DNA of 64,000 nucleotides from an uncultured virus (IMG/VR IMGVR_UViG_3300028048_003121). Taxonomy: Duplodnaviria > Heunggongvirae > Uroviricota > Caudoviricetes. The notes below the pieces were generated by a model, which worked only from the letters and a program-made list of their open reading frames with translations, was not told where the DNA came from and ran no database searches. Made by a program: the position numbers and the translations under genes. Where the stretch lies: IMG/VR virus record IMGVR_UViG_3300028048_003121. One strand, given 5' to 3'. Shown here piece by piece: positions 6,001-57,617 of this stretch; position 1 is the first letter of the stretch; each line of letters opens with the position of its first letter.

Positions 6001-6126
6001 GCCACTATACTTGCGAAGGGCTGACAGCTCCTCGGCAGTGGCCTTGCGGTTGTCACGTTCCAACTGGAGAGCGATACGGATCGCCTCGATATTATCACTG
6101 AGCTTTTGATGCTTGTTATATGCCAT
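1..6126 (-). CDS. Large N6-adenine DNA methylase / SNF2-type helicase fusion (DarB-like), >2040 aa, 3' end beyond window
   Basis: Absent from the ORF track because it has no stop in the window. ATG at 6126 gives [17 protein letters not shown]...[13 protein letters not shown]. Motifs read by eye: [10 protein letters not shown] (SAM binding), SNIPFGD (catalytic), DHEVGTGKT (Walker A), [10 protein letters not shown] (DExH). Frame still open at base 1. Confidence 0.9.
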
Positions 6127-6191
6127 AATCAACTGCTATGCGTTTCTTTTCCCGACAAAGGAAATAGAAATATGGCACACCACCTAAAATC

Positions 6192-6256: not shown

Positions 6257-6329
6257 TTTTCAAGGTCTTAAATCAAGACGATATAAGATTACTGGAGATG
6301 ACCATAAAAATAAAAAATATCGAAAAATA

Positions 6330-6361
6330 TTTGGAGATACCAAAAATTTTTTGTACCTTTG
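6330..6361 (+). promoter_or_regulatory. Bacteroidetes sigma-A type promoter (-33 TTTG / -7 TAnnTTTG)
   Basis: TTTG at 6330-6333, 20-nt spacer, TACCTTTG at 6354-6361. Confidence 0.7.
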
Positions 6362-6505
6362 CAGCATAACAAACGAGTAGACGGGTAAAAAGTCGCAATA
6401 GCGACATAATGGGAGGCTCCTACTCGCTGTTGGTGCTTGGGCATGAGCATGGTAACTGGCTCACCTTTAAGGATAAAGCCCAGCCAACTCCTGAAGAGCA
6501 GGACG

Positions 6506-6546
6506 GAAAGACCACAGAGATCCTTCGGGGTTTCTGTGGTCTTTTT
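6506..6546 (+). terminator. Strong hairpin plus U-tract, just upstream of guide scaffold A
   Basis: AAAGACCACAGAGATCC-TTCG-GGGTTTCTGTGGTCTTTTT. Confidence 0.7.
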
Positions 6547-6552
6547 GCATAC

Positions 6553-6636
6553 GGGCCGGCTGTACGGCCTTAACGTGAGGGCATTGCCCACTCACGAATC
6601 AAGCGTTCATTAACATCGAGGCAAGCTTGATACAGC
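6553..6636 (+). ncRNA. Guide scaffold A (tracr-like RNA fused to a repeat 3' fragment)
   Basis: GGCC-GGCTGTAC-GGCC hairpin; CGTGAG...CTCACG hairpin; anti-repeat ATCAAGCGTTCATT; ends in AAGCTTGATACAGC. Homologous to three other loci in the window. Confidence 0.8.
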
Positions 6637-6830
6637 CGTCCATCATGTCTGAATAGACAGACAACGGGTGTTAGACACCCGAAAATGAAAGCTTGATACA
6701 GCTCAACCGCATGGATGCCGCCATCCTGAACAGGTGTTAGACACCCGAAAATGAAAGCTTGATACAGCTAAAGATGAGGTCTTTGGCACGATATATGGGT
6801 GTTAGACATCCGAAAATGAAAAAAACAGTG
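6623..6830 (+). CRISPR. Mini CRISPR array A: repeat GGTGTTAGACACCCGAAAATGAAAGCTTGATACAGC, 3 spacers
   Basis: Partial repeat 6623-6636; full identical 36-nt repeats 6667-6702 and 6733-6768; degenerate repeat from 6798. Spacers 6637-6666 (30 nt), 6703-6732 (30 nt), 6769-6797 (29 nt). Confidence 0.92.
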
Positions 6831-6921
6831 AAGCGTCGCGGCTCACTAAAATATATAAAGAATAATAATACCATTCTGGTCTACGAGAATCCGCGACATC
6901 TCGCCCAGGGTGGTATTTTAA

Positions 6922-7215
6922 ATGGAAATGATTATGAGAAAGTTATTGATTAGTCTCGTGATGGCGCTGGCAACAATATGTGCACAGGGCCAGGAGAAAA
7001 CAACGGTGACAATAAATGACACCTGTAAAGTTGAAGGTCAGACGTCTTCAAAGACGGTGAAAGTCACCAAGAAACAGAAGATGAAAAAACTGTCAAAGAA
7101 AGAACAGAGACAGCAGCTGATGAAAAGAAACAAGACGGCAAGCTATGTCGAAGCATCAGCAGAAGATAAGCATAAAGACAGCATAGCTGGTGTGACAAAC
7201 CTTAAACTTTATTAG
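6922..7215 (+). CDS. Small secreted basic protein
   Basis: Signal-peptide-like N-terminus MRKLLISLVMALATICAQG; followed by a terminator hairpin. Confidence 0.65.
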   Translation: MEMIMRKLLISLVMALATICAQGQEKTTVTINDTCKVEGQTSSKTVKVTKKQKMKKLSKKEQRQQLMKRNKTASYVEASAEDKHKDSIAGVTNLKLY

Positions 7216-7221
7216 ATAGAC

Positions 7222-7252
7222 AAAAAGAGGATGCCTGCAAGCACCCTCTTTT
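7222..7252. terminator. Bidirectional intrinsic terminator
   Basis: AAAAAGAGGATGC-CTGCAA-GCACCCTCTTTT between convergent genes. Confidence 0.65.
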
Positions 7253-7318
7253 AAAATTTCTGCATTAAAATCTACCACCTGCTATATCGCTTATATGTAG
7301 GTAGCACGGAATCAAACC

Positions 7319-7756
7319 TTACCGCCTCATAAACTCAGCCTCGTCGAAGCTGTCAAAGCGATCGAAACAACCGTCAATACGGAGGTCGTCGGACTTCTTG
7401 ATGATGTCGATACCATACAATTTAGTCTGTTGAGTCAAAGCCTGTCTCATACAGTCATCATCAAGTTCTATCTCCTTATAGATGTTAATATAAGTATTAA
7501 ACAATTGACGCCGAGCACCATTGCGTATAACAGTCTTACCGTTATAGGTGACGCCATTCTCTCCGCGACCATTATTATTATATGTCATGTAGATAGATGC
7601 CACCGTTTCGTAAGTGTTGGTATCATAGATCCAGATCATCGCAGTATTACTAACAGGGTCGTAACGAGCCTCTGACGCGTAATGACACGCCAAAACATTC
7701 AATGGTGTTGCAAACAAGCCGAACATCATCATCATCATAAATACAATCTTCTTCAT
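7319..7756 (-). CDS. Secreted hypothetical protein
   Basis: Signal peptide MKKIVFMMMMMFGLFATPLNVLA; 145 aa. Confidence 0.7.
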   Translation of the reverse strand: MKKIVFMMMMMFGLFATPLNVLACHYASEARYDPVSNTAMIWIYDTNTYETVASIYMTYNNNGRGENGVTYNGKTVIRNGARRQLFNTYINIYKEIELDDDCMRQALTQQTKLYGIDIIKKSDDLRIDGCFDRFDSFDEAEFMRR

Positions 7757-7825
7757 AATACAATCTCTTTAATTAAACCTAACAAAAACTAACACATCCT
7801 ATTTCGCGAAAATAGTTTCATAAAA

Positions 7826-9817
7826 CTACTTGATGCCACGGGAGAGCTGTTGCTGCTCCTGCTGCTCGACACTACGGTCGAAGTTCTGACGAACCTGAGC
7901 CTGCTGTTCATCATACTTCCTCAGAACGGCATTACACAGCACGTTGAGCGGAAGTTTACCCTGATAGTAGGCATCGGCACTCTGCTCATCGATATAGATG
8001 ACACAGGGCTTGTGGTCGATGGTGGCAACGAGGGCATTACCCTTCATAGCAGGCTGCTCGATACGCTCTGACAACAGCTCGTCGGCATGCTGCACATAGC
8101 GCTTAGGTCTCTGCTGGGTACTGACACCGGCATTATCCAGAATCTCATGACCAGCCTTATTCAGGATATTGGCACCGCCAAGACCAATCAACAGCATCTT
8201 CAAGAGCGGATTCTTCACAAACAATCCTGCGAAGATGGCACCGAAAGGCAAGAGATTATCCTTCAGGTGCAGGTTCTTGGACTGACCCGTCAACATGCCA
8301 ATAAGCATGTCGGGAAGCATGGCAAGGACGTAACCGAGGTTCTTTCCGATATCACTCATACCACCCAAGCCGAACTGGTTCATCAGCCCCGTCCAGCCTT
8401 GCATACCTGCCTGCTGATAGACAGGCCCTTGCATCATCTGTGGATTCTGCTGGGACTGGTATTGCTGCTGCTGGACATACTGCTGTTGCAAAGCGGTCTG
8501 CTGCTGATACTGCTCAGAGGACGACTGCTGGGGAACAGAAACCGTCTCAAACTGAGGCGTCTCGACTTTCTTCGCCTGCTGCTTCTGGAGCTTGTCAGCG
8601 GCACGGGCATAGTCGTATGCCCTCTGTACGACCTCGTCAAAGGTGAACTTCTGACCGTTGACGGTCTGCGACTTCATCTTGCTACGCTGCATCGTCAAGG
8701 CGATAGACAGGAAATGACTGCTGAGGTCTATACACTCCTTCTGGCTCTTCTGCAACATCCACCCCGGCACGTCAGAGACGGCAGAGGGCTTCAAACCGTA
8801 GTTCTTAGAGACTGTCAAGACATTCTGCATATGTATGGCAGCATCACCGGCAGCGGACTTGGCAAGCTCATCATAACGGGCCTTCTGCCACGTAGGGCTA
8901 TACAGCGGACGGTACTCAGGGATGGTCATCGGCTTCTTGAGGTAGTCATTGACCGCATGAACGGTTTCTGACTGCGCCACCTTGACCTTCTTACCTTTCG
9001 ACCGCATAGAGGCAAAAGCTTCCTCATCACCATAGAGTTCCTTACCCAGCATCTGATCGAAGGTGGTGTCATTCTCCAAGAGGGAGAGACCACCACGGGC
9101 AAGGACGTCAACGCCAAGCCACTTTCCTAACTTCCCCCAAGAGCCGTAACCACCGGTCACGGCAGTATCAGCGGCAAAGGTAGTGGCAAAGGCGGCAGCC
9201 TTCTCGGCAGCACTGGCATCATACATCTTCTCTGCGAGAGTCCTGATATGACTGTCATGCTGACCCTCCGGAAGAGACAATCCAGAAAGGAAGGCAGGGA
9301 ATGACTCGCCGAAGCCTTTCTTCAGGATATACTCCAAGGAGGACTTGGGAACCTGTGCCTTGGCAAGCTGCTCCAACTCCAACTGCATGAAGCGGTTAGA
9401 GACAAACTCCCTGGCAAGATCCTTGGAAGGACACTTAGCGGACAGCTCAGCATAACGCTGCTCTCCCATCTCCTTGACGGCAGCAAGACGCCAGGCGTCA
9501 ATCATCACGGCGAAGTCATGCTGGACATTTTTGTTCCTACCCAACTTACCGTCAACCATCTTCAGAAGGTCATCGGAGGTCTTGCTGTTCCACTCGCCCA
9601 CAAGATGGGCCTCCTGGGCAACCATGGAGGCATGCGTCATACCGGACATGCCAGGGGCGACAGGACGGTTATCCAGCATACGGACATATTCCTCAGACTG
9701 CTTCTTTCTGAGGAAGTCCATCTGACCCTTGACCACAGGGGCGATATTCTCCCTGTAGTACCTGTCAAAGACGTATTCCAAGTCCTGGAACTGCTGCTTA
9801 TTTGTCGGTTCTGCCAT
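7826..9817 (-). CDS. ICE tra-region hypothetical membrane protein
   Basis: 663 aa; Q-rich linker, hydrophobic segments, C-terminal ..SRGIK tail; last long gene of the tra operon. Confidence 0.8.
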   Translation of the reverse strand: MAEPTNKQQFQDLEYVFDRYYRENIAPVVKGQMDFLRKKQSEEYVRMLDNRPVAPGMSGMTHASMVAQEAHLVGEWNSKTSDDLLKMVDGKLGRNKNVQHDFAVMIDAWRLAAVKEMGEQRYAELSAKCPSKDLAREFVSNRFMQLELEQLAKAQVPKSSLEYILKKGFGESFPAFLSGLSLPEGQHDSHIRTLAEKMYDASAAEKAAAFATTFAADTAVTGGYGSWGKLGKWLGVDVLARGGLSLLENDTTFDQMLGKELYGDEEAFASMRSKGKKVKVAQSETVHAVNDYLKKPMTIPEYRPLYSPTWQKARYDELAKSAAGDAAIHMQNVLTVSKNYGLKPSAVSDVPGWMLQKSQKECIDLSSHFLSIALTMQRSKMKSQTVNGQKFTFDEVVQRAYDYARAADKLQKQQAKKVETPQFETVSVPQQSSSEQYQQQTALQQQYVQQQQYQSQQNPQMMQGPVYQQAGMQGWTGLMNQFGLGGMSDIGKNLGYVLAMLPDMLIGMLTGQSKNLHLKDNLLPFGAIFAGLFVKNPLLKMLLIGLGGANILNKAGHEILDNAGVSTQQRPKRYVQHADELLSERIEQPAMKGNALVATIDHKPCVIYIDEQSADAYYQGKLPLNVLCNAVLRKYDEQQAQVRQNFDRSVEQQEQQQLSRGIK

Positions 9818-12535: not shown

Positions 12536-12952
12536 TTACATACGGCGGTCATGACCCCAGATAATGCCTCTTCCTCCGTCGGGAAGCTCAATGACATAGG
12601 GGTCACGGACACCTATAATGTCAGTACCGATATGTCGGGGAGAGTCATCATCCGATGACGAACCGCCACCGGAAGACAGCTTGGCAGTAGTGGCATCCAG
12701 ACCAAAGAAACGGGGTAGAGCCGTACTCGCCGTGACAAGGAAGACACACGAGAAAGCAAGACGCATCACCTTCATGCGAACCTCCGGCTCGCCGTCCATC
12801 ATGTCTGAATAGACAGACAACGCGCCGACAATACAGATGACGGCTGCTATCGCATAGCAGACGGCACGGACATAGAAAAGGTAGCTGGCGACGCCTGTAG
12901 CGGCGAGGCCCAGCGGATCAGCGGTTAAAATCAAGTGTGTCATAAGCATCAA
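12536..12952 (-). CDS. DUF4134/TraE-like pilin paralogue (target of spacer A1)
   Basis: CYAIAAVICIVGALSVY...FL..ALPRFFG aligns with the TraE at 25892-26305. Confidence 0.75.
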   Translation of the reverse strand: MMLMTHLILTADPLGLAATGVASYLFYVRAVCYAIAAVICIVGALSVYSDMMDGEPEVRMKVMRLAFSCVFLVTASTALPRFFGLDATTAKLSSGGGSSSDDDSPRHIGTDIIGVRDPYVIELPDGGRGIIWGHDRRM

Positions 12953-28114: not shown

Positions 28115-29257
28115 ATGAATTTTACAACAACAGCCAAGCAACTGAGTGAGCAACTGGTTAACATGAACCGTGTCATCAACTCCAAGAACGCTCTGCCTAT
28201 CCTTGCAGACATCGTATTCACCGTCAAGGGCAACATCCTGTCACTGAAGGCATCGGACAGCGAGGTAACACTCATGGCAGACATCGAACTGACAGAGAGC
28301 GAGGGTGAGGGATGCTTCGCCATCAACGGCAAGGACATCATGGAAGCCGTCAAGGGCTTACCAGAAAACCCACTGACATTCTCTATGGACAGCGACACGG
28401 ACACCATCGTCAAGATCGACTACTTCTCCGGCATGTTCACACTACCCGTCAACAACGCCATGGAGTTCCCGACACTCCCTGCAATGGACAACGCCAGTCT
28501 GGTGACATTCAACATTACGGAAGGACTGCTCCAGGAGAATATCGCACGTACCGTATTCGCATCGGCAGACGACGAGCTGCGCCCCGTCATGAACGGCATC
28601 TTCTTCGACCTCACGGCAGAACATCTGGCAGTGGTGGCATCAGACGGTCATACGCTGGTACGTAACAAGGTGCTCTCAGTCAAGGCCACCGATGAAACCA
28701 AGACAGGCAGCTTCATCCTCCCGAAGAAACCGGCACACATCCTGAAGAACATCCTCAGCCGCACGGCAGAGACGGAAGTGACCATGACAGCGGACGGCAG
28801 ACAACTGCAGATTGTGGCAGCAGGCTTCACCATGCAATGCAGACTGATTGAGGGACGCTACCCCAACTACAACAGCGTCATCCCCAAAAACAACCCGAAC
28901 ATCGTACTGGTTGACCGTAACACATTGGTAAACGCACTGCGCCGCGTATCGCCCTTCTCGAACAACAGCAGCAACCTGGTACGCATCCACGTGGAGAATA
29001 ACCAGATCCAACTCGACACCGAGGACTACGACTTCTCAAAGACGGCTACAGAGCGTATGGCATGCGAGTACAACGGCGAGGCTATGAGCATCGGCATGAA
29101 GGGTGCCAAGACCATCGAGATCTTAGGCAACATGAGCGCACAGGAGATTGAAATGCAACTGGCAGACCCCTCACGGGCAGCACTGATACTGCCATCGGAA
29201 CAGCCGACGGACATGGAGATACTGATGCTTCAGATGCCCATGCTTCTGAATGACTAA
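28115..29257 (+). CDS. dnaN: DNA polymerase III beta sliding clamp
   Basis: KNALPILAD; DDELRPVMNGI; VASDGHTL; RLIEGRYPNYNSVIP; QMPM C-terminus. Confidence 0.95.
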   Translation: MNFTTTAKQLSEQLVNMNRVINSKNALPILADIVFTVKGNILSLKASDSEVTLMADIELTESEGEGCFAINGKDIMEAVKGLPENPLTFSMDSDTDTIVKIDYFSGMFTLPVNNAMEFPTLPAMDNASLVTFNITEGLLQENIARTVFASADDELRPVMNGIFFDLTAEHLAVVASDGHTLVRNKVLSVKATDETKTGSFILPKKPAHILKNILSRTAETEVTMTADGRQLQIVAAGFTMQCRLIEGRYPNYNSVIPKNNPNIVLVDRNTLVNALRRVSPFSNNSSNLVRIHVENNQIQLDTEDYDFSKTATERMACEYNGEAMSIGMKGAKTIEILGNMSAQEIEMQLADPSRAALILPSEQPTDMEILMLQMPMLLND

Positions 29258-31312: not shown

Positions 31313-31503
31313 GATAAATCCCCAAAGGTACGATAAATTACGTTACCCTTGGGGATTTTCCGTGGAAAACCTACTATTTTCCATTGATAACGGAAAAATT
31401 TCCTCAGAACGCACTAAAATAGTGCAAAAACGAAGGGAAATTTCCATTTAGTGGCAGAAAATTTCCGTTTTAACGATTTTCTTGCAAAAAACGACGGAAA
31501 AAT

Positions 31504-31534
31504 TTTGTTATTACAAAGAAAAATCGTAACTTTG
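31504..31534 (+). promoter_or_regulatory. Bacteroidetes sigma-A promoter for guide locus C
   Basis: TTTG at 31504-31507, 19 nt, TAACTTTG at 31527-31534; scaffold starts ~15 nt downstream. Confidence 0.78.
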
Positions 31535-31549
31535 CAGGGTGTCATTATC

Positions 31550-31633
31550 GGGGCAGCTGTTTGCCCTTAACATGAGGGATAAATCCACTCATGAATCATG
31601 CGGTCATTCTCATAATGATAAGCTGAATATAGC
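31550..31633 (+). ncRNA. Guide scaffold C (tracr-like RNA fused to a repeat fragment)
   Basis: GGGCA-GCTGT-TTGCCC; CATGAG...CTCATG; ends AAGCTGAATATAGC. Confidence 0.8.
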
Positions 31634-31750
31634 ATTAGACGCTCCAGCCTTGTACTCCTTGAAGGTGTTAGACACCTGGGAATGAAAGCTGAATACAGCT
31701 TGGGTGATAAATCGTAACTATAGTTTCCTGGTGTTAGACACCTCTAATAA
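31620..31750 (+). CRISPR. Mini CRISPR array C: repeat GGTGTTAGACACCTGGGAATGAAAGCTGAATACAGC, 2 spacers
   Basis: Partial repeat ending 31633; spacer 31634-31663; full repeat 31664-31699; spacer 31700-31729; truncated repeat from 31730. Repeat is closely related to array A. Confidence 0.85.
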
Positions 31751-31773
31751 AACAAGGTAAGATGACTCCTACC

Positions 31774-36415: not shown

Positions 36416-38617
36416 TTATGCTATTTGTTGTAATCTCTGTTTCAGATAGGTTTGCCGCTCGACGAATAAACGACGGTTCTTGACATAGAGGTTGGTGACG
36501 GCAGCATAAATAGCCTGACGATCACCAATAAGAATGCAACGCTCCTTGGCACGGGTGATGGCCGTGTAGATTAGGTTGCGCTGAAGCATTATATAGGCAG
36601 AATTGAGGATGGGAATAATGACCGTGTTATACTCGGAACCCTGCGATTTATGAATGGTGGTGGCATAAGCCAAGTCCAACTCATCCAAATCGTTTTCCTC
36701 GTATCTGACATCAGAGACATGGTCAGGGAAACTGACAATCATATATCCCATATCCTCATTCACAAACAGAATAGTACCTATATCACCATTGAAAACACCC
36801 TTATCATAGTTGTTCTTCATTTGCATGACGCTATCACCAACACGGAAGAAAGTACTGCTATACTGTAAGGCTTCGCCCTTGGGGTTCAGACGCTCCTGCA
36901 ACATCTTGTTCAATACATAACAAGCCGTAGTTCCACGGGAACGCTGAGGACAGAGAACCTGGACATCCTTGGGCTTAATATGATAAGCCATTGGAAGGCG
37001 CTCGGCAACTAACGTCAAAATCTCTTCGGCAACCTGCTGCTCGTCGGTGTTGGAAATAAAGAAAAAATCCTTGCTACCTTTATTTGATAAGTCCGGCATC
37101 CTGCCATACTTGATAGCCTGAGCCGCATAGGGAATACGGCTGGAAGCCTGCTGGCGGAAGATTTTTTCAAGACGAACAACAGGAATGACATGACTGTCGA
37201 TAAGGTCTTTCAGAACGTTACCGGCTCCGACACTCGGAAGCTGGTCAACATCACCGACGAGAATCAGACGCTTATAGGGAGACATGGCCTTCAAGAGACT
37301 CTGGAAGAGAAGAATGTCAACCATGGAGAACTCATCAACAACAACAACATCCTCAGACAGATGGTTGTCCTCGTTATACTTAAAACCATTGACTTCCCAG
37401 CTGAAGCACAAAAGACGATGAATGGTGGAAGCATCATAGCCTGTACTCTCCTTGGCACGCTTGGCAGCGCGACCGGTAGGAGCACACACGGCAATGCTGT
37501 AGTTTTTCAATCTAAGGGCACAAAGGATTCCTTTGAGAACGGTGGTCTTTCCAGTACCAGGACCACCGGTGAGAATCATCACCGAGTGCTGAAGGGACTG
37601 GTGAATAGCCTGCTGCTGGACAGGATCAAACGTCATACCTTCCATAGACTGGATATGACGGATAGCATGGTTGGCAAGGATTTTATCTTCATCAGAAGAG
37701 AAATCCCTAAAATAGGACTGAGCTGACAACATAGAAAGAAGCCGATTGGCACAATAGTACTCGGCATTGTAATACTCAGAAAGGTAAACCTTGCCGATAT
37801 CATCCACAAGAGTACCGGCATTGATGTTAGAACGGACGGCATGCTCTATCAGGTTCTTATCTGCTTGAAGAATTTCATGAGCTGAATCCAGGAGTTGCTC
37901 ATGCCTGATATAACAGTCGCCTTGTTTTATCAACTGGGACATCACGAAAATAACGCCATAATGAAGACGGCGAGGATCATCATCCTTATAACCCATCTCC
38001 TTAGCAATCTTGTCGGCAATAATAAAACTGATACCGTCAATCTTCTCGATGAGACAGTAAGGATTTTCGCGGACAGCCTGAACGGCAGTACCACCGAAAA
38101 CCTTGATGATTTTCTTAACATAGGCAAGGCTGATACCATAACTGGCAAGAAAAACCATCACATCACGCTCCAGACTCTGCTGCTTGATGAAAGAAGAAGC
38201 ACGGTAAGCTCTCTCCTTACCAAGACGGGGAATTTCAATAAGTTTTTCAGGGAAATTCTCGATGATATTAAAGGTCTGGTCACCGAAGGCTTCCACGATA
38301 GAATGGGCAAACTTCTTACCAATGCCTTTGATCTTGCCACTGGCAAGGTACTTCTCTATACCTGTCAGAGACTCCGGACGAACCTCCATCCAGGAGATTG
38401 CTTCAAACTGACGGCCATATTTCTCATGCTGCACCCAGTTTCCCTGAACTTCCAGAAGAATACCTTCGATGACATCAAAGGAATAGCCCGTCACTACAAC
38501 GTCTGCACCGCTATCTTCAATAGTAGCGGCAAAGACACTGTAGTTATCCTTGCGCTCGTAAAAAATTTTGTTCTTTACGACGCAACGAAGACGGGTATAT
38601 TTTACTTCATCGTTCAT
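36416..38617 (-). CDS. recD2: RecD2-like ATP-dependent helicase
   Basis: HEKYGRQF; LTGGPGTGKTT; VVDEFSM; GDVDQLPSVGAG; YATTIHKSQGSE; YTAITRAK. Confidence 0.93.
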   Translation of the reverse strand: MNDEVKYTRLRCVVKNKIFYERKDNYSVFAATIEDSGADVVVTGYSFDVIEGILLEVQGNWVQHEKYGRQFEAISWMEVRPESLTGIEKYLASGKIKGIGKKFAHSIVEAFGDQTFNIIENFPEKLIEIPRLGKERAYRASSFIKQQSLERDVMVFLASYGISLAYVKKIIKVFGGTAVQAVRENPYCLIEKIDGISFIIADKIAKEMGYKDDDPRRLHYGVIFVMSQLIKQGDCYIRHEQLLDSAHEILQADKNLIEHAVRSNINAGTLVDDIGKVYLSEYYNAEYYCANRLLSMLSAQSYFRDFSSDEDKILANHAIRHIQSMEGMTFDPVQQQAIHQSLQHSVMILTGGPGTGKTTVLKGILCALRLKNYSIAVCAPTGRAAKRAKESTGYDASTIHRLLCFSWEVNGFKYNEDNHLSEDVVVVDEFSMVDILLFQSLLKAMSPYKRLILVGDVDQLPSVGAGNVLKDLIDSHVIPVVRLEKIFRQQASSRIPYAAQAIKYGRMPDLSNKGSKDFFFISNTDEQQVAEEILTLVAERLPMAYHIKPKDVQVLCPQRSRGTTACYVLNKMLQERLNPKGEALQYSSTFFRVGDSVMQMKNNYDKGVFNGDIGTILFVNEDMGYMIVSFPDHVSDVRYEENDLDELDLAYATTIHKSQGSEYNTVIIPILNSAYIMLQRNLIYTAITRAKERCILIGDRQAIYAAVTNLYVKNRRLFVERQTYLKQRLQQIA

Positions 38618-46588: not shown

Positions 46589-46795
46589 AACTGATAATAA
46601 TATAAGTTATTTTCTGACATATAGTAATTATTTGTTATCTGTACCTGGCAGAAAGTCGGGCTTGAAAGAGAAGCAATGGAGTGTGCCGCCTGCCTTACGC
46701 CAAGCAAAACCACCATCCCAAAGATGAACGACTTCTGCATCGTCTGGAATCCGGTTAACAAACTCCTTGAACTTCTTACCATCCATAAAACTTAC

Positions 46796-47188
46796 TTATT
46801 CGGCTTCGCTAACTGTCATAAAATTCTGAGAGGCACGGAGAATGGCTAATACCTGTTTGTCCTGCTTGGGGAACAAACCTACCATGGTCTTACCAATCAC
46901 ACGCTGGATCTTGTTAGCCTTACGGGAGAGCTGGTCGGCAATACTGAACTTGGTATTCATCTCGTCAAGATAGAGGCGACGCTCCTCCATCATAAGGCGA
47001 TGTTCCTCAATCTGGAGTTTCTTAAAATCCAGTTTGCAACGCTCCAAATTGACAATAGCATTGATCTGCTTGACTTGAAGCTCACCACGACGGATGTCTA
47101 TGTCCGTCTCAGCCTTCTCGTTCATTCGCTGACTGAACTCTTCTTCAAGAGCGCAGAGGTCGAAAATTTTTTCTTGACTGTCCTTCAT
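46796..47188 (-). CDS. Coiled-coil hypothetical protein
   Basis: 130-aa ORF. Confidence 0.6.
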   Translation of the reverse strand: MKDSQEKIFDLCALEEEFSQRMNEKAETDIDIRRGELQVKQINAIVNLERCKLDFKKLQIEEHRLMMEERRLYLDEMNTKFSIADQLSRKANKIQRVIGKTMVGLFPKQDKQVLAILRASQNFMTVSEAE

Positions 47189-47220
47189 AACTTTATAATT
47201 TATTTATTACTAAAATTTCC

Positions 47221-47327
47221 TTTTATACCCAGATTGGCGCTATCAATAGGGATTTCCCGTTGTATGTAGCTATATGAGCACTTCATGAGTGAATAAATTC
47301 CTCACGATAGGGGTGTACAACCGCCCC
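47221..47327 (-). ncRNA. Guide locus D: minimal scaffold plus 29-nt spacer immediately downstream of dCas12f
   Basis: Minus strand: GGGG-CGGTTGTACA-CCCC; CGTGAG...CTCATG; ...CATACAAC; spacer GGGAAATCCCTATTGATAGCGCCAATCTG (47258-47230); degenerate repeat start GGTATAAAA. Confidence 0.75.
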
Positions 47328-47337
47328 GAAAATATAG

Positions 47338-48624
47338 TTATTTTGTTTTATCTTTTATTTCTGACTCTTTAAGTTCCTTAACCTCAATACCCACAGCATC
47401 AGCCTTATACTTGATTTTCGTCTTTAAGCCGAAATAACTCCAGTTTCTCAGAACCAGACCATCACCCTTCTCATGGTCTTCCTTGGCCTGGTCTTCACGC
47501 TCTTTCTGGTTTACCAGAACAATCTTTCCACACTTGTGTTTGATAGCTAAGTTGATAAGCTCACGGGAATAGGTGTGAAGCTTGGTGTCAACATAGTTAT
47601 TTTCCTTATCATGCCAACGCTCAATTGCCTGACACTTGCGCTTACGTCCATGACCGCCCTTGGCATATTTATTATTAGCCTGACAACGTTGTACCGCAGC
47701 CTGGATCTGAGTACGGCGATAAAGAAACTCTTCCTTCGTACCTATATGGAAGAATTTAACACCGCTGTCATAAACATTCTTGGCTACGACATTCACACAA
47801 AAAACAATCGGGTGGTTGATACCCAGATAAGCGTAAAGCACCTTATTAGAATTAAGAGCCACTTTCTGGACGGGAATATCTACACAGAGGAATAGAAAAA
47901 GCTTCTGCTTCTTTTTTTCAGACTTTTTATCAAATTTCTTCTCAAAGGCAATAGATGAAGAACATACCTTTAATTCACCATCGATACAACGCTGAAGAAT
48001 AGACTCATTATTAGATCTGTCCTGCCCCAGATGACAGCAGAAAGGAATACCGAAAAGATTGAAATAATAACGGTTCACCTTCTTTACCTCGCCAGTATTG
48101 GTGTCGGTATATTCTTCCTCGGCCTTATGAAGATTTGACAAGGCACGAGCAGAGAACGGAATGGGAATATTGTTTTTATAACTCCGTAATGAACTCTCAC
48201 CAACAGCAATATTGCCGGCAGTTTCCTTGTAGGAACTGGCAACAAGCTGATTAAGACAAGTATATATGTCTGAATTAACTTTATTCTTTAAAAAAGAAGA
48301 AATCAGACGATAAGTGACATTCTGTTCACTCAGTCCTTTTTCGTCTTTAAGGATGTCTTTAGAGTCCTTGTAAGCAAGCTTGAAACCATCAGTCTTCTTG
48401 TCCTTATAGACAAAAGGCTTATTATTAATATCAAGACGCTCCAAGACATCATCCTGCAAATACATAAACTCACGGACGTTCTGTTGAACAAAACGGTGAG
48501 ATACAATCAGATTTGCAGCTCTACGAACAGCATCACGCCAGTCATATAATGTCTGCATGTACTGTTTCTTCTGTTCGGTGTCCTGTTCGTGAACACGGAT
48601 TTCTATTTTACGAGTTATAATCAT
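47338..48624 (-). CDS. Cas12f/TnpB-family RNA-guided protein with inactivated RuvC (dCas12f-like)
   Basis: ITRKIEI N-terminus; GGHGRKRK; LHTYSRELINLA; LRNWSYFGLKTKIKYKA..GIEV. RuvC-I reads YAYLGI instead of xDLGI; RuvC-II reads IVLVNQ instead of IxxEDL; no Zn finger or RuvC-III. Flanked by guide loci. Confidence 0.85.
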   Translation of the reverse strand: MIITRKIEIRVHEQDTEQKKQYMQTLYDWRDAVRRAANLIVSHRFVQQNVREFMYLQDDVLERLDINNKPFVYKDKKTDGFKLAYKDSKDILKDEKGLSEQNVTYRLISSFLKNKVNSDIYTCLNQLVASSYKETAGNIAVGESSLRSYKNNIPIPFSARALSNLHKAEEEYTDTNTGEVKKVNRYYFNLFGIPFCCHLGQDRSNNESILQRCIDGELKVCSSSIAFEKKFDKKSEKKKQKLFLFLCVDIPVQKVALNSNKVLYAYLGINHPIVFCVNVVAKNVYDSGVKFFHIGTKEEFLYRRTQIQAAVQRCQANNKYAKGGHGRKRKCQAIERWHDKENNYVDTKLHTYSRELINLAIKHKCGKIVLVNQKEREDQAKEDHEKGDGLVLRNWSYFGLKTKIKYKADAVGIEVKELKESEIKDKTK

Positions 48625-48640
48625 AATACTAAAATTTTTA

Positions 48641-48792
48641 ATTCATTCGGTGTGTTACACCACCTTGTTCAAGTTATGTCAAGTATCATTCGCTGTGTGT
48701 CACCTCATTTCTTCGGTGTTTTACACCGGGTCGATAGTGTCCACGAAAATCTTTATGCTGTGTATCACCTCATTTCTTCGGTGTTTTACACC
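48641..48792 (-). CRISPR. Mini CRISPR array B: repeat GGTGTAAAACACCGAAGAAATGAGGTGAYACACAGC, 2 spacers
   Basis: Full repeats 48757-48792 and 48692-48727 (1 mismatch); truncated repeat 48641-48661; spacers 48728-48756 (29 nt) and 48662-48691 (30 nt). Confidence 0.9.
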
Positions 48793-48814
48793 TGACTTCA
48801 CGAAAGTCCTTGAC

Positions 48815-48880
48815 TTTTAAAAATTGAGAGCGACTTCGTGAGTGGAAATTCCCTCACGTTAAGGGCATCACAGCTGCCCC
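48815..48880 (-). ncRNA. Scaffold B (tracr-like, not fused to a repeat)
   Basis: GGGCA-GCTGTGA-TGCCC; CGTGAG...CTCACG; anti-repeat GTCGCTCTCAATTT is imperfectly complementary to AAATGAGGTGAC of repeat B. Confidence 0.78.
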
Positions 48881-48940
48881 ATTTGATATAATTATTCTAT
48901 CATATTCATAATCATATTATTTAATTGATACATGTATTTA

Positions 48941-49510
48941 TTATCGTGCTGATGTCTCACAGACATCCTCGACGTATTCAGTCATCTGACGCAGGAGCCG
49001 GAAGGTCTTCTTTGTTAGCTTCTTATGCTTTAACTCTTCCAGAAGCTCCTGGTAGATGCTGTTATTCTCCTTATATTCTCGCGTGAGGAAATAACGCAGC
49101 CATTTGGAGTTGAGCTTCTGAGGAAACGGCAAACGGAGCTTACGGACTATCATGGCACTCATAGCCATTTGGTAGGACTCGTACAAGTAGAAACACTGCT
49201 TGGCCTTATAGTCGTACCAGTCGAAGAGCATGTGGGCAACATTCTTTTGGCGGTTGATGCTGATCTGAAAGCACTCAATCACACACTCTTCCTTGATGCT
49301 ACGTGCAAGACTCTTCAGCTCGTCTAAAGTCGTAGACTTCTTGATCTCGAAGATAACCTCACGGATAAACTTCATGTTGGCATGCGGAACTGAACCATTG
49401 GCAGCAATGATCTTTTCCTGCCTGACATCATAGGTGTCACTGACCCAAAACTCCTTGGTAGGGTGGAGGTCACGCTGACGGGGCTTTATTTCAAATACTT
49501 GCTGGATCAT
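48941..49510 (-). CDS. Degenerate Mob_Pre/MobV-like protein
   Basis: IREVIFEIKKSTTLDELKSL...QISINR...AHMLFDW resembles the Mob_Pre core but lacks an intact His motif. Confidence 0.45.
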   Translation of the reverse strand: MIQQVFEIKPRQRDLHPTKEFWVSDTYDVRQEKIIAANGSVPHANMKFIREVIFEIKKSTTLDELKSLARSIKEECVIECFQISINRQKNVAHMLFDWYDYKAKQCFYLYESYQMAMSAMIVRKLRLPFPQKLNSKWLRYFLTREYKENNSIYQELLEELKHKKLTKKTFRLLRQMTEYVEDVCETSAR

Positions 49511-52651: not shown

Positions 52652-52873
52652 CTATAAGTTGAAATTGTTCACAATGCGGTTAGTAGCCTGACGCCATGCC
52701 AACGGAGACTTGAAGTTTGATAGGACATCGGCATACTTGTACTTAGGTCCGGCCATGGCCAGATAGGCGGTGGCCTGCTGCTGGGCAGCTTCGACATTGG
52801 TACAGTTAGCCTCCCACATCATAAGCTTCTCATTCGCGTCCTCCGGGGTTAGCAGTATCATAAACTTTTCCAT
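52652..52873 (-). CDS. Hypothetical protein
   Basis: 73-aa ORF. Confidence 0.55.
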   Translation of the reverse strand: MEKFMILLTPEDANEKLMMWEANCTNVEAAQQQATAYLAMAGPKYKYADVLSNFKSPLAWRQATNRIVNNFNL

Positions 52874-52884
52874 AGACCTGAACT

Positions 52885-54063
52885 TTAGAGGGTTTCATTG
52901 ATAGTAGTAGTGACGTCGATACTCACAGTACCGTGCCAGTTGGCACGACTGCGGATCTCTTCAAGAAGGATTTCATCGGAAATCTGAGACAGGAACTCTC
53001 TCTGCTTCTCAGGGAGAGCTGACGACGGGACGGAAGCATCGATACACTTCTTGATGACTCTGGTCTTTTTCTGAGCCGTTGCCTTATGAGCATTGATGAC
53101 TGTCTGGGGAACGACACGGCGATAGCCTCTTTCCCTCTTGACGGGATGCCAGCCCTCGTTGAACTCGTCGGCAAATGCCCAATGGAATCCACCAGAGATA
53201 CCGCAACGGTCAATAGCACGAAGAACATTCTTAATGCCAAGGGCTTTCTCGGCAGCCTTGGCGGTGTCGAAACGGGCGACCTCCTTCAGGGTGGTCGTGT
53301 CGATCTGAACAACAGGACGTCGAAGGTACTGTCCATCAGTGACCGTCTTCTTTTCTCTCTTAACAACCTTGGCTTTTGGATTTGGCTTGAATGTCTCGGC
53401 ATTCTCTGGAGAACACCAGAAGAAACCGGCAGCGAGACGGGCATTCTTGACGGCACGGTCAAGATTGCAGGCACCAGTCTCTCTCTCTGCCTCACTGCGC
53501 GACGTCCAAATCTTAATAACCGCAAGGGTCTTCGGGTCAAGCTGGGCAACAGAAATAGGTGCCTTTCCTGGCTTCTTGACAGTAGTATTGTTTTCTTGCA
53601 TAACGGATATATGATTTAGATTTTCTTTTTCATCAGAAAAGTCAATACCTTGCAGGGGATCTTCTGTGTCATCCTGTGCAGGGGCTTGGGATTTTGATTC
53701 AGAAACTTCCACCTTGGGCTTTTCAACGGACTTTGCTTTAGGTTTAGCAACCTTTGCGGGCTGTTCTGTAGGCTTGGTGGAAGCTATATTATAGTCGAAA
53801 TCGGGAGCAGGGTAGGTTTTCGGGTCATTGCCATGAAGCCATGTCAAGACATGACAGAGAACGGAACAAGCGTTAACCTGGGCACGATGGTCGGCCTTAC
53901 AGTCCTTCAGGACAATGTCCATGAAGTGGCGGTCGATGAGCGTCACATCCATAGATCCATGCTTCTCCAGCAGAACCTTCTGCATGTTCGTGCGGTTCTT
54001 GGCAGCCAGAACTTTGTTGTCTGGAATTGCGGCCCATTGGGTAAATGCTTGCTTTAACGTCAT
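52885..54063 (-). CDS. Protein with two NUMOD1-like DNA-binding repeats
   Basis: VAQLDPKTL..IKIWTSRSEAER...AAGFFW and VVQIDTTTL.EVARFDTAKAAEK...SGGFHW. Confidence 0.7.
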   Translation of the reverse strand: MTLKQAFTQWAAIPDNKVLAAKNRTNMQKVLLEKHGSMDVTLIDRHFMDIVLKDCKADHRAQVNACSVLCHVLTWLHGNDPKTYPAPDFDYNIASTKPTEQPAKVAKPKAKSVEKPKVEVSESKSQAPAQDDTEDPLQGIDFSDEKENLNHISVMQENNTTVKKPGKAPISVAQLDPKTLAVIKIWTSRSEAERETGACNLDRAVKNARLAAGFFWCSPENAETFKPNPKAKVVKREKKTVTDGQYLRRPVVQIDTTTLKEVARFDTAKAAEKALGIKNVLRAIDRCGISGGFHWAFADEFNEGWHPVKRERGYRRVVPQTVINAHKATAQKKTRVIKKCIDASVPSSALPEKQREFLSQISDEILLEEIRSRANWHGTVSIDVTTTINETL

Positions 54064-56138: not shown

Positions 56139-57617
56139 ATGGCTACATTCAGAATTAAAGTCCAAAAGCAAAGATCTGATGGATATTGGCCCGTTTACAT
56201 CAGGGTTATCCATCAAAGAGAGAGTTTCTTTATCAAAACCGACAAGGTTGTTGATAACAGTGGTATTGTCAAGAGTACAAAAGAGGTGAAAGACCCCTTT
56301 GTGTGTAAGTTCTGTAACATAAAGATTACAGAATATGTGGAAATGCTCAACAAAGTGGATATATCCACATGGAACGTCAAGGATGTCGTGACCTTCCTAA
56401 AGAAAGGAACTGAGGATATCTGTTTTTCGGACTATGCCCGAAAATACCACGATGAGCTATACAATACCGGCCATGAAAGAAATGCCCGGACGTATGAACT
56501 TGCACAGCAGAATATGGAACTCTATGCCGGCACAAATAAAATCATGTTCTCTCACCTGACATCGACATTCCTTAACGGATGGATAAAATCCCTTTCAAAC
56601 ACCTCCAGGGCAAAGGAACAATACCCTGTCTGCATGAGACAGGTGTTCAAACAAGCCCTGTTGGAATTTAACGACTATGATACAGGACTCATCCGTATCG
56701 CGACCAATCCTTGGCTGAAGGTCAAGATTCCCAAGGCTGATACGCCAGAAAAGAGAGCCATCACCATGCAGGAATGCAGGGCTTTCTTCTCAGCGCCTCT
56801 TCCGGAAAGCGACAGAAAATATCCACTTGCCGAACTTGGCCAGGATGTGGCAATGCTATCATTATGTCTGGCAGGCATAAATACGGTGGATATTTACTTC
56901 CTGAAGAAGAAAGACTATCATGACGGACTTATCTGTTACGAGAGAAAGAAAACCCGTGCTGCACGAGCCGATCATGCGTATTTTGAAATACGTGTTCCGT
57001 CAATCATACAGCCGATTATCGATAAATATCTCGATAAAACGGATTCTGAATACCTTTTTGTGTTCCAAAAGAGACTGTCAAGCTATGACAGCTTCAATGC
57101 CAATGTAAACATCGGCATACGACAGATCTGCAAAGATGTTCTCAATATACCGCGAGAATCGGCATATAGTATATATACCTTCCGGCATACATGGGCAACA
57201 GTGGCTCAGAATAACTGTGGTGCTACTCTTGCAGAGGTGGACTTCGGACTGAACCACGCCCATAAGACCAAGCTTGCCCGAACTTACGTGAAGATTGACT
57301 TTACGCCAGCATGGGAGCTGAACGAAAAAGTTATAGAGAAGATCTTCTTTACAGAAGAACAAACCAAAGAGCACGAGGTGAAGGTGGATCCACACTTTGG
57401 AAGATTCTCTTTCAAGCAGCTTATCAAGGGAACGCTGTATTATAGGGGAAAGGTCATGGTGACCATAGAGGATGTCGGCTTCAATAATGTCGAACAGGTC
57501 ATTATTGAACTGATGAAACAGCTTCCAAAGACGGTTCCTTCGCGCTCCATGGTACAGATACGTATTGAGAACAAGGATAAACAACAGACCCAGGATTACA
57601 CCAGAATGGTGAGATAA
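56139..57617 (+). CDS. int: Tyrosine recombinase/integrase
   Basis: Arm-binding N-terminus; SAM-like domain; AGINTVDI; YTFRHTWAT; LNHA; catalytic Y in RTYVK. Confidence 0.9.
   Translation: MATFRIKVQKQRSDGYWPVYIRVIHQRESFFIKTDKVVDNSGIVKSTKEVKDPFVCKFCNIKITEYVEMLNKVDISTWNVKDVVTFLKKGTEDICFSDYARKYHDELYNTGHERNARTYELAQQNMELYAGTNKIMFSHLTSTFLNGWIKSLSNTSRAKEQYPVCMRQVFKQALLEFNDYDTGLIRIATNPWLKVKIPKADTPEKRAITMQECRAFFSAPLPESDRKYPLAELGQDVAMLSLCLAGINTVDIYFLKKKDYHDGLICYERKKTRAARADHAYFEIRVPSIIQPIIDKYLDKTDSEYLFVFQKRLSSYDSFNANVNIGIRQICKDVLNIPRESAYSIYTFRHTWATVAQNNCGATLAEVDFGLNHAHKTKLARTYVKIDFTPAWELNEKVIEKIFFTEEQTKEHEVKVDPHFGRFSFKQLIKGTLYYRGKVMVTIEDVGFNNVEQVIIELMKQLPKTVPSRSMVQIRIENKDKQQTQDYTRMVR

Follow-up and report, generated by a model that had tools for sequence, protein, structure and literature searches.

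The 64,000-nucleotide (nt) stretch of DNA analysed in this study (IMG/VR record IMGVR_UViG_3300028048_003121; here called the window) is part of a conjugative element of a cattle-gut Prevotella-type bacterium, a Bacteroidetes conjugative transposon. An open reading frame (ORF) on its minus strand, dcas12f, encodes a nuclease-dead protein of the Cas12f kind (dCas12f), and four guide RNA loci (A to D) are scattered over 42.3 kb of the window (6552-48880), with starts at 6552, 31549, 47328 and 48880. The guides that could be traced matched genes of mobile elements, including one gene of the element itself.

By alignment, the 428-amino acid (aa) product of dcas12f has a Cas12f fold with a dead RuvC site. 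Among all PDB chains, its top match was 9n9c_A, 'Nuclease-deactivated Cas12f' (E 1.4e-62, query residues 4-415), followed by the active Cas12f chains 9nzo_B and 9nzr_A (E 4e-45) and by Un1Cas12f1/Cas14a (E 2e-7), and the 14 distinct PDB sequences that matched were of Cas12f/TnpB type throughout. This homology to Cas12f (type V-F) extended over the REC/WED/RuvC core. The NCBIfam guided_TnpB model reached 53.6 bits, below its cut-off of 100, and Pfam OrfB_IS605 reached 18.9 bits, also below cut-off. In the alignment to active 9nzo_B, the RuvC-I aspartate was replaced by tyrosine (YAYLGIN opposite GVDLGIN) and the RuvC-II glutamate by valine (IVLVNQ opposite IQMERL). Moreover, this nuclease has 506 aa but the alignment stopped at its residue 416, and a tail of about 90 aa with the Zn-finger and RuvC-III was missing. 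Neither the RuvC D-E-D triad nor the C-terminal Zn-finger of active Cas12f was thus intact.

The guide RNA loci followed the type V-F layout, with an array and a scaffold resembling a trans-activating CRISPR RNA (tracr-like) beside dcas12f (Table 1). Upstream of the gene, locus C carried two 36-nt repeats (spacing 65, 97% alike) followed by a third, degenerate one from 48661 that reached nearly to the dcas12f ATG. Downstream, the scaffold of locus D started at 47328/47327, which is 10-11 nt past the stop codon. Loci A and B, which lie on the plus strand, opposite to dcas12f and to loci C and D, had another organization, in which the scaffold led into a half repeat and then into the first guide to form a natural single guide, with ordinary repeat-spacer units after it. 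A preliminary description of this DNA had reported a 428-aa protein of Cas12f/TnpB type with tyrosine at the RuvC-I position (YAYLGI), loss of the RuvC-II glutamate (IVLVNQ) and no Zn finger or RuvC-III, a scaffold and mini-array upstream of its gene, a single-guide locus 11 nt after its stop, and four guide loci over 42 kb; the PDB matches, the alignment and the scaffold profile described below bore out each of these points.

Table 1. Positions of the dcas12f gene, the guide loci and associated features (window coordinates unless a contig or locus is named).
Feature	Position	Strand	Remarks
dcas12f gene	47338..48624	-	428 aa; RuvC-I Asp to Tyr, RuvC-II Glu to Val, without Zn-finger/RuvC-III tail
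Locus C scaffold (tracr-like)	48793..48880	-	stem 1, stem 2, anti-repeat, short hairpin; continues into repeat 1
Locus C mini-array	48640..48792	-	repeats 48757-48792, 48692-48727; spacers C1 48728-48756, C2 48662-48691
Locus D single guide	47230..47328	-	scaffold 47280-47328; collapsed repeat end ...TACATACAAC; guide from 47258 (GGGAAATCCC...)
Locus A scaffold fused to half repeat	6552-6598	+	whole locus 6552..6833
Locus A guides	A0 6637-6666, A1 6703-6732, A2 6769-6797	+	
Locus A repeats	6667-6702, 6733-6768; degenerate repeat 6798-6833	+	
Locus B scaffold fused to half repeat	31549-31595	+	whole locus 31549..31757
Locus B guides and repeats	B0 31634-31663, repeat 31664-31699, B1 31700-31729, degenerate repeat from 31730	+	
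A0 protospacer	12793..12822	+	30/30; 5' flank ...CTCGC
130-aa coiled-coil gene	46796..47188	-	in dcas12f module indel; relatives adjoin dcas12f in other loci
B0-targeted element	L102 (G001:C76); L103 6703-10974 (G353:C2)		
Guide loci of genome G171 (L119-L122)	G171:C48:90649-90708 and 110299-116649		dcas12f and scattered scaffold loci

The flanks of the two plus-strand loci showed further features. A TAacTTTG motif (31527-31534, plus strand) lies 15 nt ahead of the locus B scaffold, and palindromes resembling GGAAA(A)TTTCC occur several times, together with inverted repeats, at 31340-31534 on the same strand, upstream of array B; these palindromes may be an operator controlling guide expression. 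Immediately 5' of scaffold A, a 185-nt stretch (6364-6548, plus strand) that ends in a terminator hairpin folded very stably (-77.6 kcal/mol, z -6.68), had no match in Rfam and was preceded, by eye, by a TAccTTTG motif. It is a candidate for an unknown small RNA.

The scaffold profile retrieved 189 copies, namely the 4 of the window and 185 in 69 of the 81 loci with dcas12f homologues, and every copy in the latter was on the strand of the dcas12f gene. Across 106 distinct copies, 98.5% of cells formed standard pairs, compensatory changes were seen in 11 of the 13 scaffold pairs, and the covariation score was 0.628, compared with 0.158 for shuffles and 0.04-0.08 for slid-partner controls. The predicted folds of the guide loci consisted of two 5' stems and a third stem of anti-repeat and repeat (z -2.5 to -3.8), and Rfam held no family for any guide locus.

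Hints of expression came from public sequencing data. The module was seen in bovine-gut sequencing runs from 12 studies, six rows of which were RNA libraries. A 178-nt RNA-library contig with a depth of 129 and Illumina adapters at both ends spanned 48742-48873, and a second RNA run of the same sample gave an adapter-bounded end at 48744; the depth over the dcas12f gene was 3-9, and the parts of the module without RNA-contig cover included 48446-48733 and 47299-47366. These data, which are assembled contigs from two runs of one sample and by themselves prove neither strand nor ends nor transcription, fit an abundant RNA in which scaffold C and repeat 1 are followed by the first 13-15 nt of spacer C1. 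In these contigs, a guide end of this length was apparent only for locus C. A separate 96-nt RNA-library contig (run X15 record 4) joined repeat 1 of array C (window 48755-48792) to flanks unlike the window, which suggests a variant guide locus sharing this repeat in the same sample.

A natural comparison was provided by a sibling element in genome G001 (G001:C5), which is 96% identical over about 53 kb and colinear with window 1-55944. This element is without window 46797-48937, a 2.1-kb indel that holds a small coiled-coil gene, locus D, dcas12f and locus C, and without window 6289-7819 (1.5 kb), which holds locus A, the stable stretch 5' of it and a small signal-peptide-like ORF (about 6925-7215); both indels are clean. 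Locus B is retained with an identical scaffold and B0, and B1 is swapped for an unrelated 30-mer. Because the sibling lacks the module but keeps locus B with B1 replaced, the dcas12f module is a cassette, the arrays turn over, and an element without effector keeps an orphan array.

Three of the nine guides (A0, B0 and C2) had a traceable target, and six did not. Guides were called by anchoring on the repeat instead of by an 'AGC' motif, which gave false spacers in coding sequence. Guide A0 matched the element's own DUF4134 tra gene (12536-12943, minus strand) at all 30 positions, with a second-best window match of 19/30, and the G001 element carries the same 32 nt at this site. This perfect match within the tra operon, the place of A0 as the first and scaffold-fused guide, and the possible operator-like palindromes upstream of array B would suit a self-regulator, whose guides mainly tune the element's own transfer and whose foreign matches reflect shared ancestry.

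The targets of the other two guides lie elsewhere. Six of 401 genomes of the genus contained 31/31 matches of B0, at seven places in total; G001 was one of them, matched on a separate contig, and each site was 243-272 nt into a MobV relaxase gene (NCBIfam 122.6 bits, cut-off 100; Pfam Mob_Pre 32.7 bits). Array B was missing from five of these six genomes, and the best B0 match inside the window was 18/30. For C2, a 27/30 match was located in a sibling element (L034), in a replication-type gene of Lin1244_N/DUF7833 kind; it falls in the C-terminal part, which the window's own homologue of this gene lacks. Moreover, a spacer of another family member (L023) matched L036 over 26 of 27 aligned positions, in a divergent promoter region next to an ERF gene, and all three non-self protospacers had G at -1. 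Self-regulation is therefore unlikely to be the main role: the B0 target belongs to a separate MobV element in genomes without array B, the element's homologue of the C2-targeted gene lacks the target domain, C stands in place of G at -1 of the self site, and the sibling element manages without the module.

The element targeted by B0 was also characterized. It is about 4.3 kb long and holds, besides the MobV relaxase gene, an ORF of 345 aa that belongs to no known family; one end resembles, by eye, the 3' end of a tRNA gene, and no terminal overlap pointing to a circle was found in it. A Bacteroides plasmid carries an annotated, distant mobV.

Searches with the other guides gave no further targets. 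Nothing was found for A1, A2, B1, C1 and D in 201-401 genomes of the genus or for C1, C2 and D in 401 of them, in cultured phages or PLSDB for any of the arrays A, B and C, or in IMG/VR for 24-mers of A1, A2, B1 and C1 and a degenerate C2 pattern, and 16-nt seeds of all guides gave nothing more in 929,684 bases of the collected loci. Window matches of A2 (52870-52887) and C1 (38057-38074) at 15/18 were at chance level, and a 'spacer' of L006 that matched window 46731-46751 turned out to be a homologous small ORF and not a guide target. The 12 spacers of L045 had no target in 401 genomes. Furthermore, the approximately 15 spacers of genome G171 had no target in that genome, which is 99% complete, and this argues against routine regulation of host genes.

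The protein belongs to a large family. At E <= 1e-5, 930 homologues were found, mostly of 405-432 aa and from metagenomes, the nearest non-self one at 70% identity; none was present in 61 related genomes, nearest genome G001 included, and a single-protein search of genome contigs for related loci gave one locus. Another genome of the genus, G171, has a distant dcas12f (45% identical); four loci of scaffold and array surround it, a fifth scaffold lies about 20 kb off, and the scattering of guide loci is therefore not unique to the window. The neighbourhoods of 81 homologue loci were phage-like or ICE-like (ICE, integrative and conjugative element), with an excisionase-type helix-turn-helix (HTH) protein, S24 repressor, integrase, ERF, RusA, antirepressor, methylases and homing endonucleases. 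The number of intact homologues of similar length speaks against the notion of a decaying relic, a functionless CRISPR-Cas12f remnant whose matches are leftovers. A dead nuclease without adaptation genes, short arrays with degenerate terminal repeats and a module that is missing from the sibling element are what such a remnant might leave; however, the scaffold covaries strongly, a spacer was swapped between elements that are 96% identical, RNA-library coverage over the scaffold is high, and the module recurs in bovine-gut runs of 12 studies. We regard decay as very improbable.

The commonest neighbour of dcas12f was a small helical protein encoded on the same strand, which was found in 40 of 82 sequences as a 78-aa type (32/82) or a 130-aa type (8/82), the latter including the coiled-coil gene of the window. 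The two families may be related (hhalign probability 29.6%, E 5.7e-4). The predicted structure of the 130-aa protein was one long helix (residues 11-102) and a short one, with a pLDDT of 80.3, and no family or PDB match was found for it; its predicted complex with dCas12f scored 0.00, which is uninformative either way. A different observation concerned locus L044, where a spacer at 8478 had a 23-nt match (8069-8091) in the dcas12f gene of the same locus, at its 3' end, which could be self-targeting or a duplication.

The mobile context was evident from the genes of the window. TraN, TraM and TraK equivalogs and a TraG-family ATPase were above NCBIfam cut-offs; further families were DUF4134, DUF4138, M23 peptidase, a RecD2-type helicase, Toprim primase and methylases, and a tyrosine-integrase-like ORF is located at 56139-57617. 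The element also has its own dnaN-like sliding clamp (28115-29257, plus strand), the RecD2-type helicase being at 36416-38617 (minus strand), and a helicase-domain protein of more than 2044 aa that runs off the window end (1-6132, minus strand). Pfam scans of 65 window ORFs found no Cas1, Cas2, Cas4, transposase or Sigma70 family, and no Sigma70 family was found in the 41 + 23 + 16 homologue-neighbour proteins scanned. Pfam sees the sigma factors of dCas12f systems poorly, and a positive-control RpoE probe was therefore made. It came from G514, the sole match among 401 genomes of the class, in which a 365-aa homologue is preceded by a 181-aa ORF matching RpoE 9n9q_C (E 8e-9) but Sigma70_r2 only at E 0.0084. 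This probe gave no match, its best E values being 0.35 in the window and 0.013 (over 27 aa) in the 81 homologue loci, and neither an rpoE nor an HTH gene adjoins dcas12f in the window. The 189-aa ORF at 48941-49510, which had no match in Pfam, NCBIfam or PDB, was set aside as a partner, being ICE backbone that is also present in the G001 element. The ICE context and the lack of cas1/cas2/cas4, transposase and sigma factor genes in the window, both put forward in the preliminary description, hence held, and the homologue neighbourhood survey and the rpoE search that it had recommended gave mobile-element genes and no sigma factor.

Taken together, conflict between elements is the most economical explanation, since the traced targets and their carriers both belong to mobile elements, and the module is read as a weapon or control device of its element because the traced guides point at transfer and replication genes of such elements. 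We regard the module as a CRISPR-array-associated, sigma-independent nuclease-dead Cas12f on a Bacteroidetes conjugative transposon and, with a confidence a little above even, as an RNA-guided DNA binder for conflict between mobile elements that possibly also controls the transfer of its own. Judged from the sequences matched, the traced guides seemed to fit such conflict or transfer control better than general gene regulation. Each guide locus would be transcribed as a tracr-like scaffold of two covarying stems and an anti-repeat, fused to a half repeat and the first guide and followed by ordinary repeat-spacer units; trans pairing between the scaffold and the repeats downstream is also probable. 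These RNAs would load dCas12f, most likely as a dimer like that of solved Cas12f, and the complex would bind matching double-stranded DNA (dsDNA) beside a short 5' motif, possibly G, without cutting it. We infer from this that a hitchhiking mobilisable element would be silenced or obstructed at its MobV relaxase gene and sibling elements at their replication-type gene, presumably to the benefit of the element or of its cell and with some part for the coil protein, and the element's own tra operon may also be modulated through the DUF4134 gene.

Several observations weigh against this reading. Only three of nine guides were traced, the 131 unique spacers of the family yielded two to three credible cross-matches, and seed matches of A1 (14-15/16) fell in unrelated genes and were put down to chance. 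The C2 match has three mismatches, two of them within the first 15 nt. At -1 of the A0 self site stands C, as at the end of the repeat, and the site may be unbound or exempt. In addition, the RNA support rests on contigs of one sample. The orientation of the sites is a further difficulty. All three protospacers (A0, B0 and C2) are intragenic with the CRISPR RNA (crRNA) antisense to the mRNA, and an oncoming RNA polymerase would therefore meet the end distal to the target-adjacent motif (TAM) at each of them. Such a TAM-distal encounter is a weak orientation for dCas12a roadblocks. A simple roadblock repressor was therefore not concluded, owing to the intragenic antisense sites and the C at -1 of the self site; the points on strand orientation and 5'-G rest on very few sites.

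The same orientation would also be expected if the crRNAs, with or without the protein, acted as antisense RNAs on transcripts, for which the abundant short RNA species in the RNA libraries would be suitable. However, solved relatives bind dsDNA with a TAM, a DNA-type 5'-G flank is present at 3/3 non-self sites, the target of the family member L023 is intergenic, and the number of traced guides is three, and we consider this action on RNA very improbable.

A third use of the orientation would be an RNA-guided start of transcription like that of the dCas12f-sigmaE activators, with a host extracytoplasmic function sigma factor encoded elsewhere or the coil protein as partner. The nearest solved relative is indeed the dCas12f of a sigma-dependent activator, in which the surface corresponding to the truncated RuvC domain lies under the C-terminal domain of sigma (10.1101/2025.06.10.658880). 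In the published system, transcription starts 46 bp downstream of the TAM in guide direction (PMC13472631), a direction that is antisense to the gene at 3/3 of our targets, and the conserved small helical neighbour is a candidate partner. Polymerase might even fire antisense into the targets and silence them by convergent transcription. This reading is quite unlikely, as the 65 window ORFs and the homologue-locus neighbours contained no sigma factor, the probe with a bona fide dCas12f-type RpoE found nothing, neither family nor PDB searches gave a match for the coil protein, the published targets lie upstream of operons and not in ORFs (PMC13472631), and three sites are too few for a strand bias (all alike by chance in 1 of 4 cases).

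Within the preferred reading of a DNA binder in element conflict, a more specific version would have the element police its own conjugation machinery, with B0 shutting down the relaxase of the hitchhiker and other guides hitting siblings. The self match in the tra gene would then be exempt through its missing 5'-G motif, and the 'solo' arrays of effector-less siblings would borrow or divert the effector in trans, in which case the VIPR arms race between phages and satellites would have a counterpart built on Cas12f. This version is possible but doubtful. A bolder one, that the complex and its coiled-coil partner start antisense transcription and do not merely occupy DNA, was suggested by the antisense orientation that the three traced sites share relative to their genes, and is highly unlikely. 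The preliminary description had proposed a stand-alone programmable regulator. The dead Cas12f fold, the ICE, the four loci and the lack of sigma and adaptation genes speak for this view; however, 'stand-alone' needs qualification, for the small coil gene travels with dcas12f in about half of the sequences and in the same 2.1-kb indel, and so does 'regulator', for the traceable guides aim at mobile-element genes and both binding and repression are presumed steps.

The natural roles shown so far for dead Cas12f are, to our knowledge, those of sigma-E-linked activators of nutrient-uptake operons only. Array-linked, sigma-less dead Cas12f was previously seen only in genome surveys, and the present locus supplies concrete natural targets for it, together with distributed and orphan arrays, a conserved coil partner and a built-in natural knock-out in the 96%-identical element. 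If the proposed role is true, conjugative elements of gut and rumen Bacteroidota would decide by RNA-guided binding who uses the conjugation machinery, which would bear on gene flow in these communities, and such compact, naturally multiplexed, binding-only effectors could serve Bacteroidota genetics.

The kind of protein, the RNA layout and the links to mobile elements are already published (Altae-Tran 2023; Hoffmann 2026). No report of a dead Cas12f on a conjugative element or of spacers against relaxase genes was found in the literature, and the supplements of these papers may list the clade. The window system shares with TldR (10.1101/2023.11.30.569447, Wiegand et al.) a nuclease-dead RuvC-family protein that works with a guide RNA as a transcription factor in the published case. 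TldR, however, is described as directly derived from TnpB, with no arrays and an omega-RNA that overlaps the 3' end of the gene, whereas the window protein falls under the guided_TnpB cut-off, is much nearer to Cas12f and is accompanied by a Cas12f-type scaffold and repeats. Type V-M Cas12m (PMC10442227) is likewise a compact Cas12 that does not cut dsDNA and has short arrays, and it is thought to silence invaders by tight binding (PMC10442227; PMC10691335). It belongs to a different Cas12 lineage and keeps an altered RuvC site, whereas two catalytic residues of the window protein are replaced and the third motif is absent. The window resembles Cas12m in the spacer matches to mobile elements (A0, B0 and C2), and by analogy silencing might follow from them.

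A phage 'dCas14' with a spacer against the host glycyl-tRNA synthetase was read as a repressor (PMC7162821, Al-Shayeb 2020). In that case, too, a mobile element encodes a dead Cas12f/Cas14 that comes with spacers of its own; compared by description, the carrier there is a huge phage and the target a host gene, whereas here an ICE aims at genes of mobile elements. Phage VIPR (10.64898/2026.10.15.759431, Lopez et al.) offers an analogy only, as an RNA-guided silencer of a mobile element directed at the mobility gene of a parasite, and its effector-less relatives, from which the effector module was cleanly deleted, keep solo guide genes, to which the G001 element with array B is a parallel. VIPR uses GGYNN repeats and a non-contiguous code (2 of 3), in contrast to the 36-nt hairpin repeats and contiguous matches (30/30, 31/31) found here; the machinery is unrelated and the window system is not a member of VIPR.

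The closest characterized relatives are the dCas12f-sigmaE activators of Flagellimonas taeanensis (9n9c/9n9q), which have G as TAM and guides of 14-16 nt (PMC13472631, Hoffmann, Wiegand et al. 2026). Common to both systems are a homologous protein that is truncated at its C terminus and has an inactive RuvC, and the G at -1 of the three non-self sites; the predicted chimeric RNA of scaffold and guide encoded directly behind the dcas12f stop (locus D) and the apparent short guide (13-15 nt, at locus C, in contigs of one sample) may be further likenesses. The window differs in having no rpoE anywhere and no HTH neighbour, in keeping full repeat-spacer units with 29-30-nt spacers, in its location on a conjugative element, in a protein of 428 aa with insertions instead of 365 aa, and in targets inside mobile-element genes, whereas the published targets are upstream of susCD, two-component or the systems' own operons.

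The same paper describes a distinct array-associated, rpoE-less dCas12f cluster with a possible repressor of an efflux operon (PMC13472631). Inactivated Cas12f derivatives were also reported from Bacteroidota including Prevotellaceae, with a tracrRNA-half-repeat fusion and with links to RpoE, MobC, relaxases, HTH proteins and phage integrases (PMC10691335, Altae-Tran 2023), as an intermediate from inactivated Cas12f to omega-RNA. The sigma-less dead Cas12f beside arrays, the putative guide RNA scaffold upstream of the array with its tracrRNA-half-repeat fusion, the links to relaxase, MobC and integrase, and a proposed regulatory or repressive role are all shared with the window. The window system accordingly agrees with the rpoE-less cluster in being a dead Cas12f without rpoE, near arrays and with a covarying upstream guide RNA, a likeness by description and not by tree. 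The published example of that cluster, from a metagenome-assembled genome of Chitinophagaceae, targets the promoter of an RND efflux operon; the guides of the window, by comparison, are distributed over four loci of an ICE and directed at tra, relaxase and replication-type genes.

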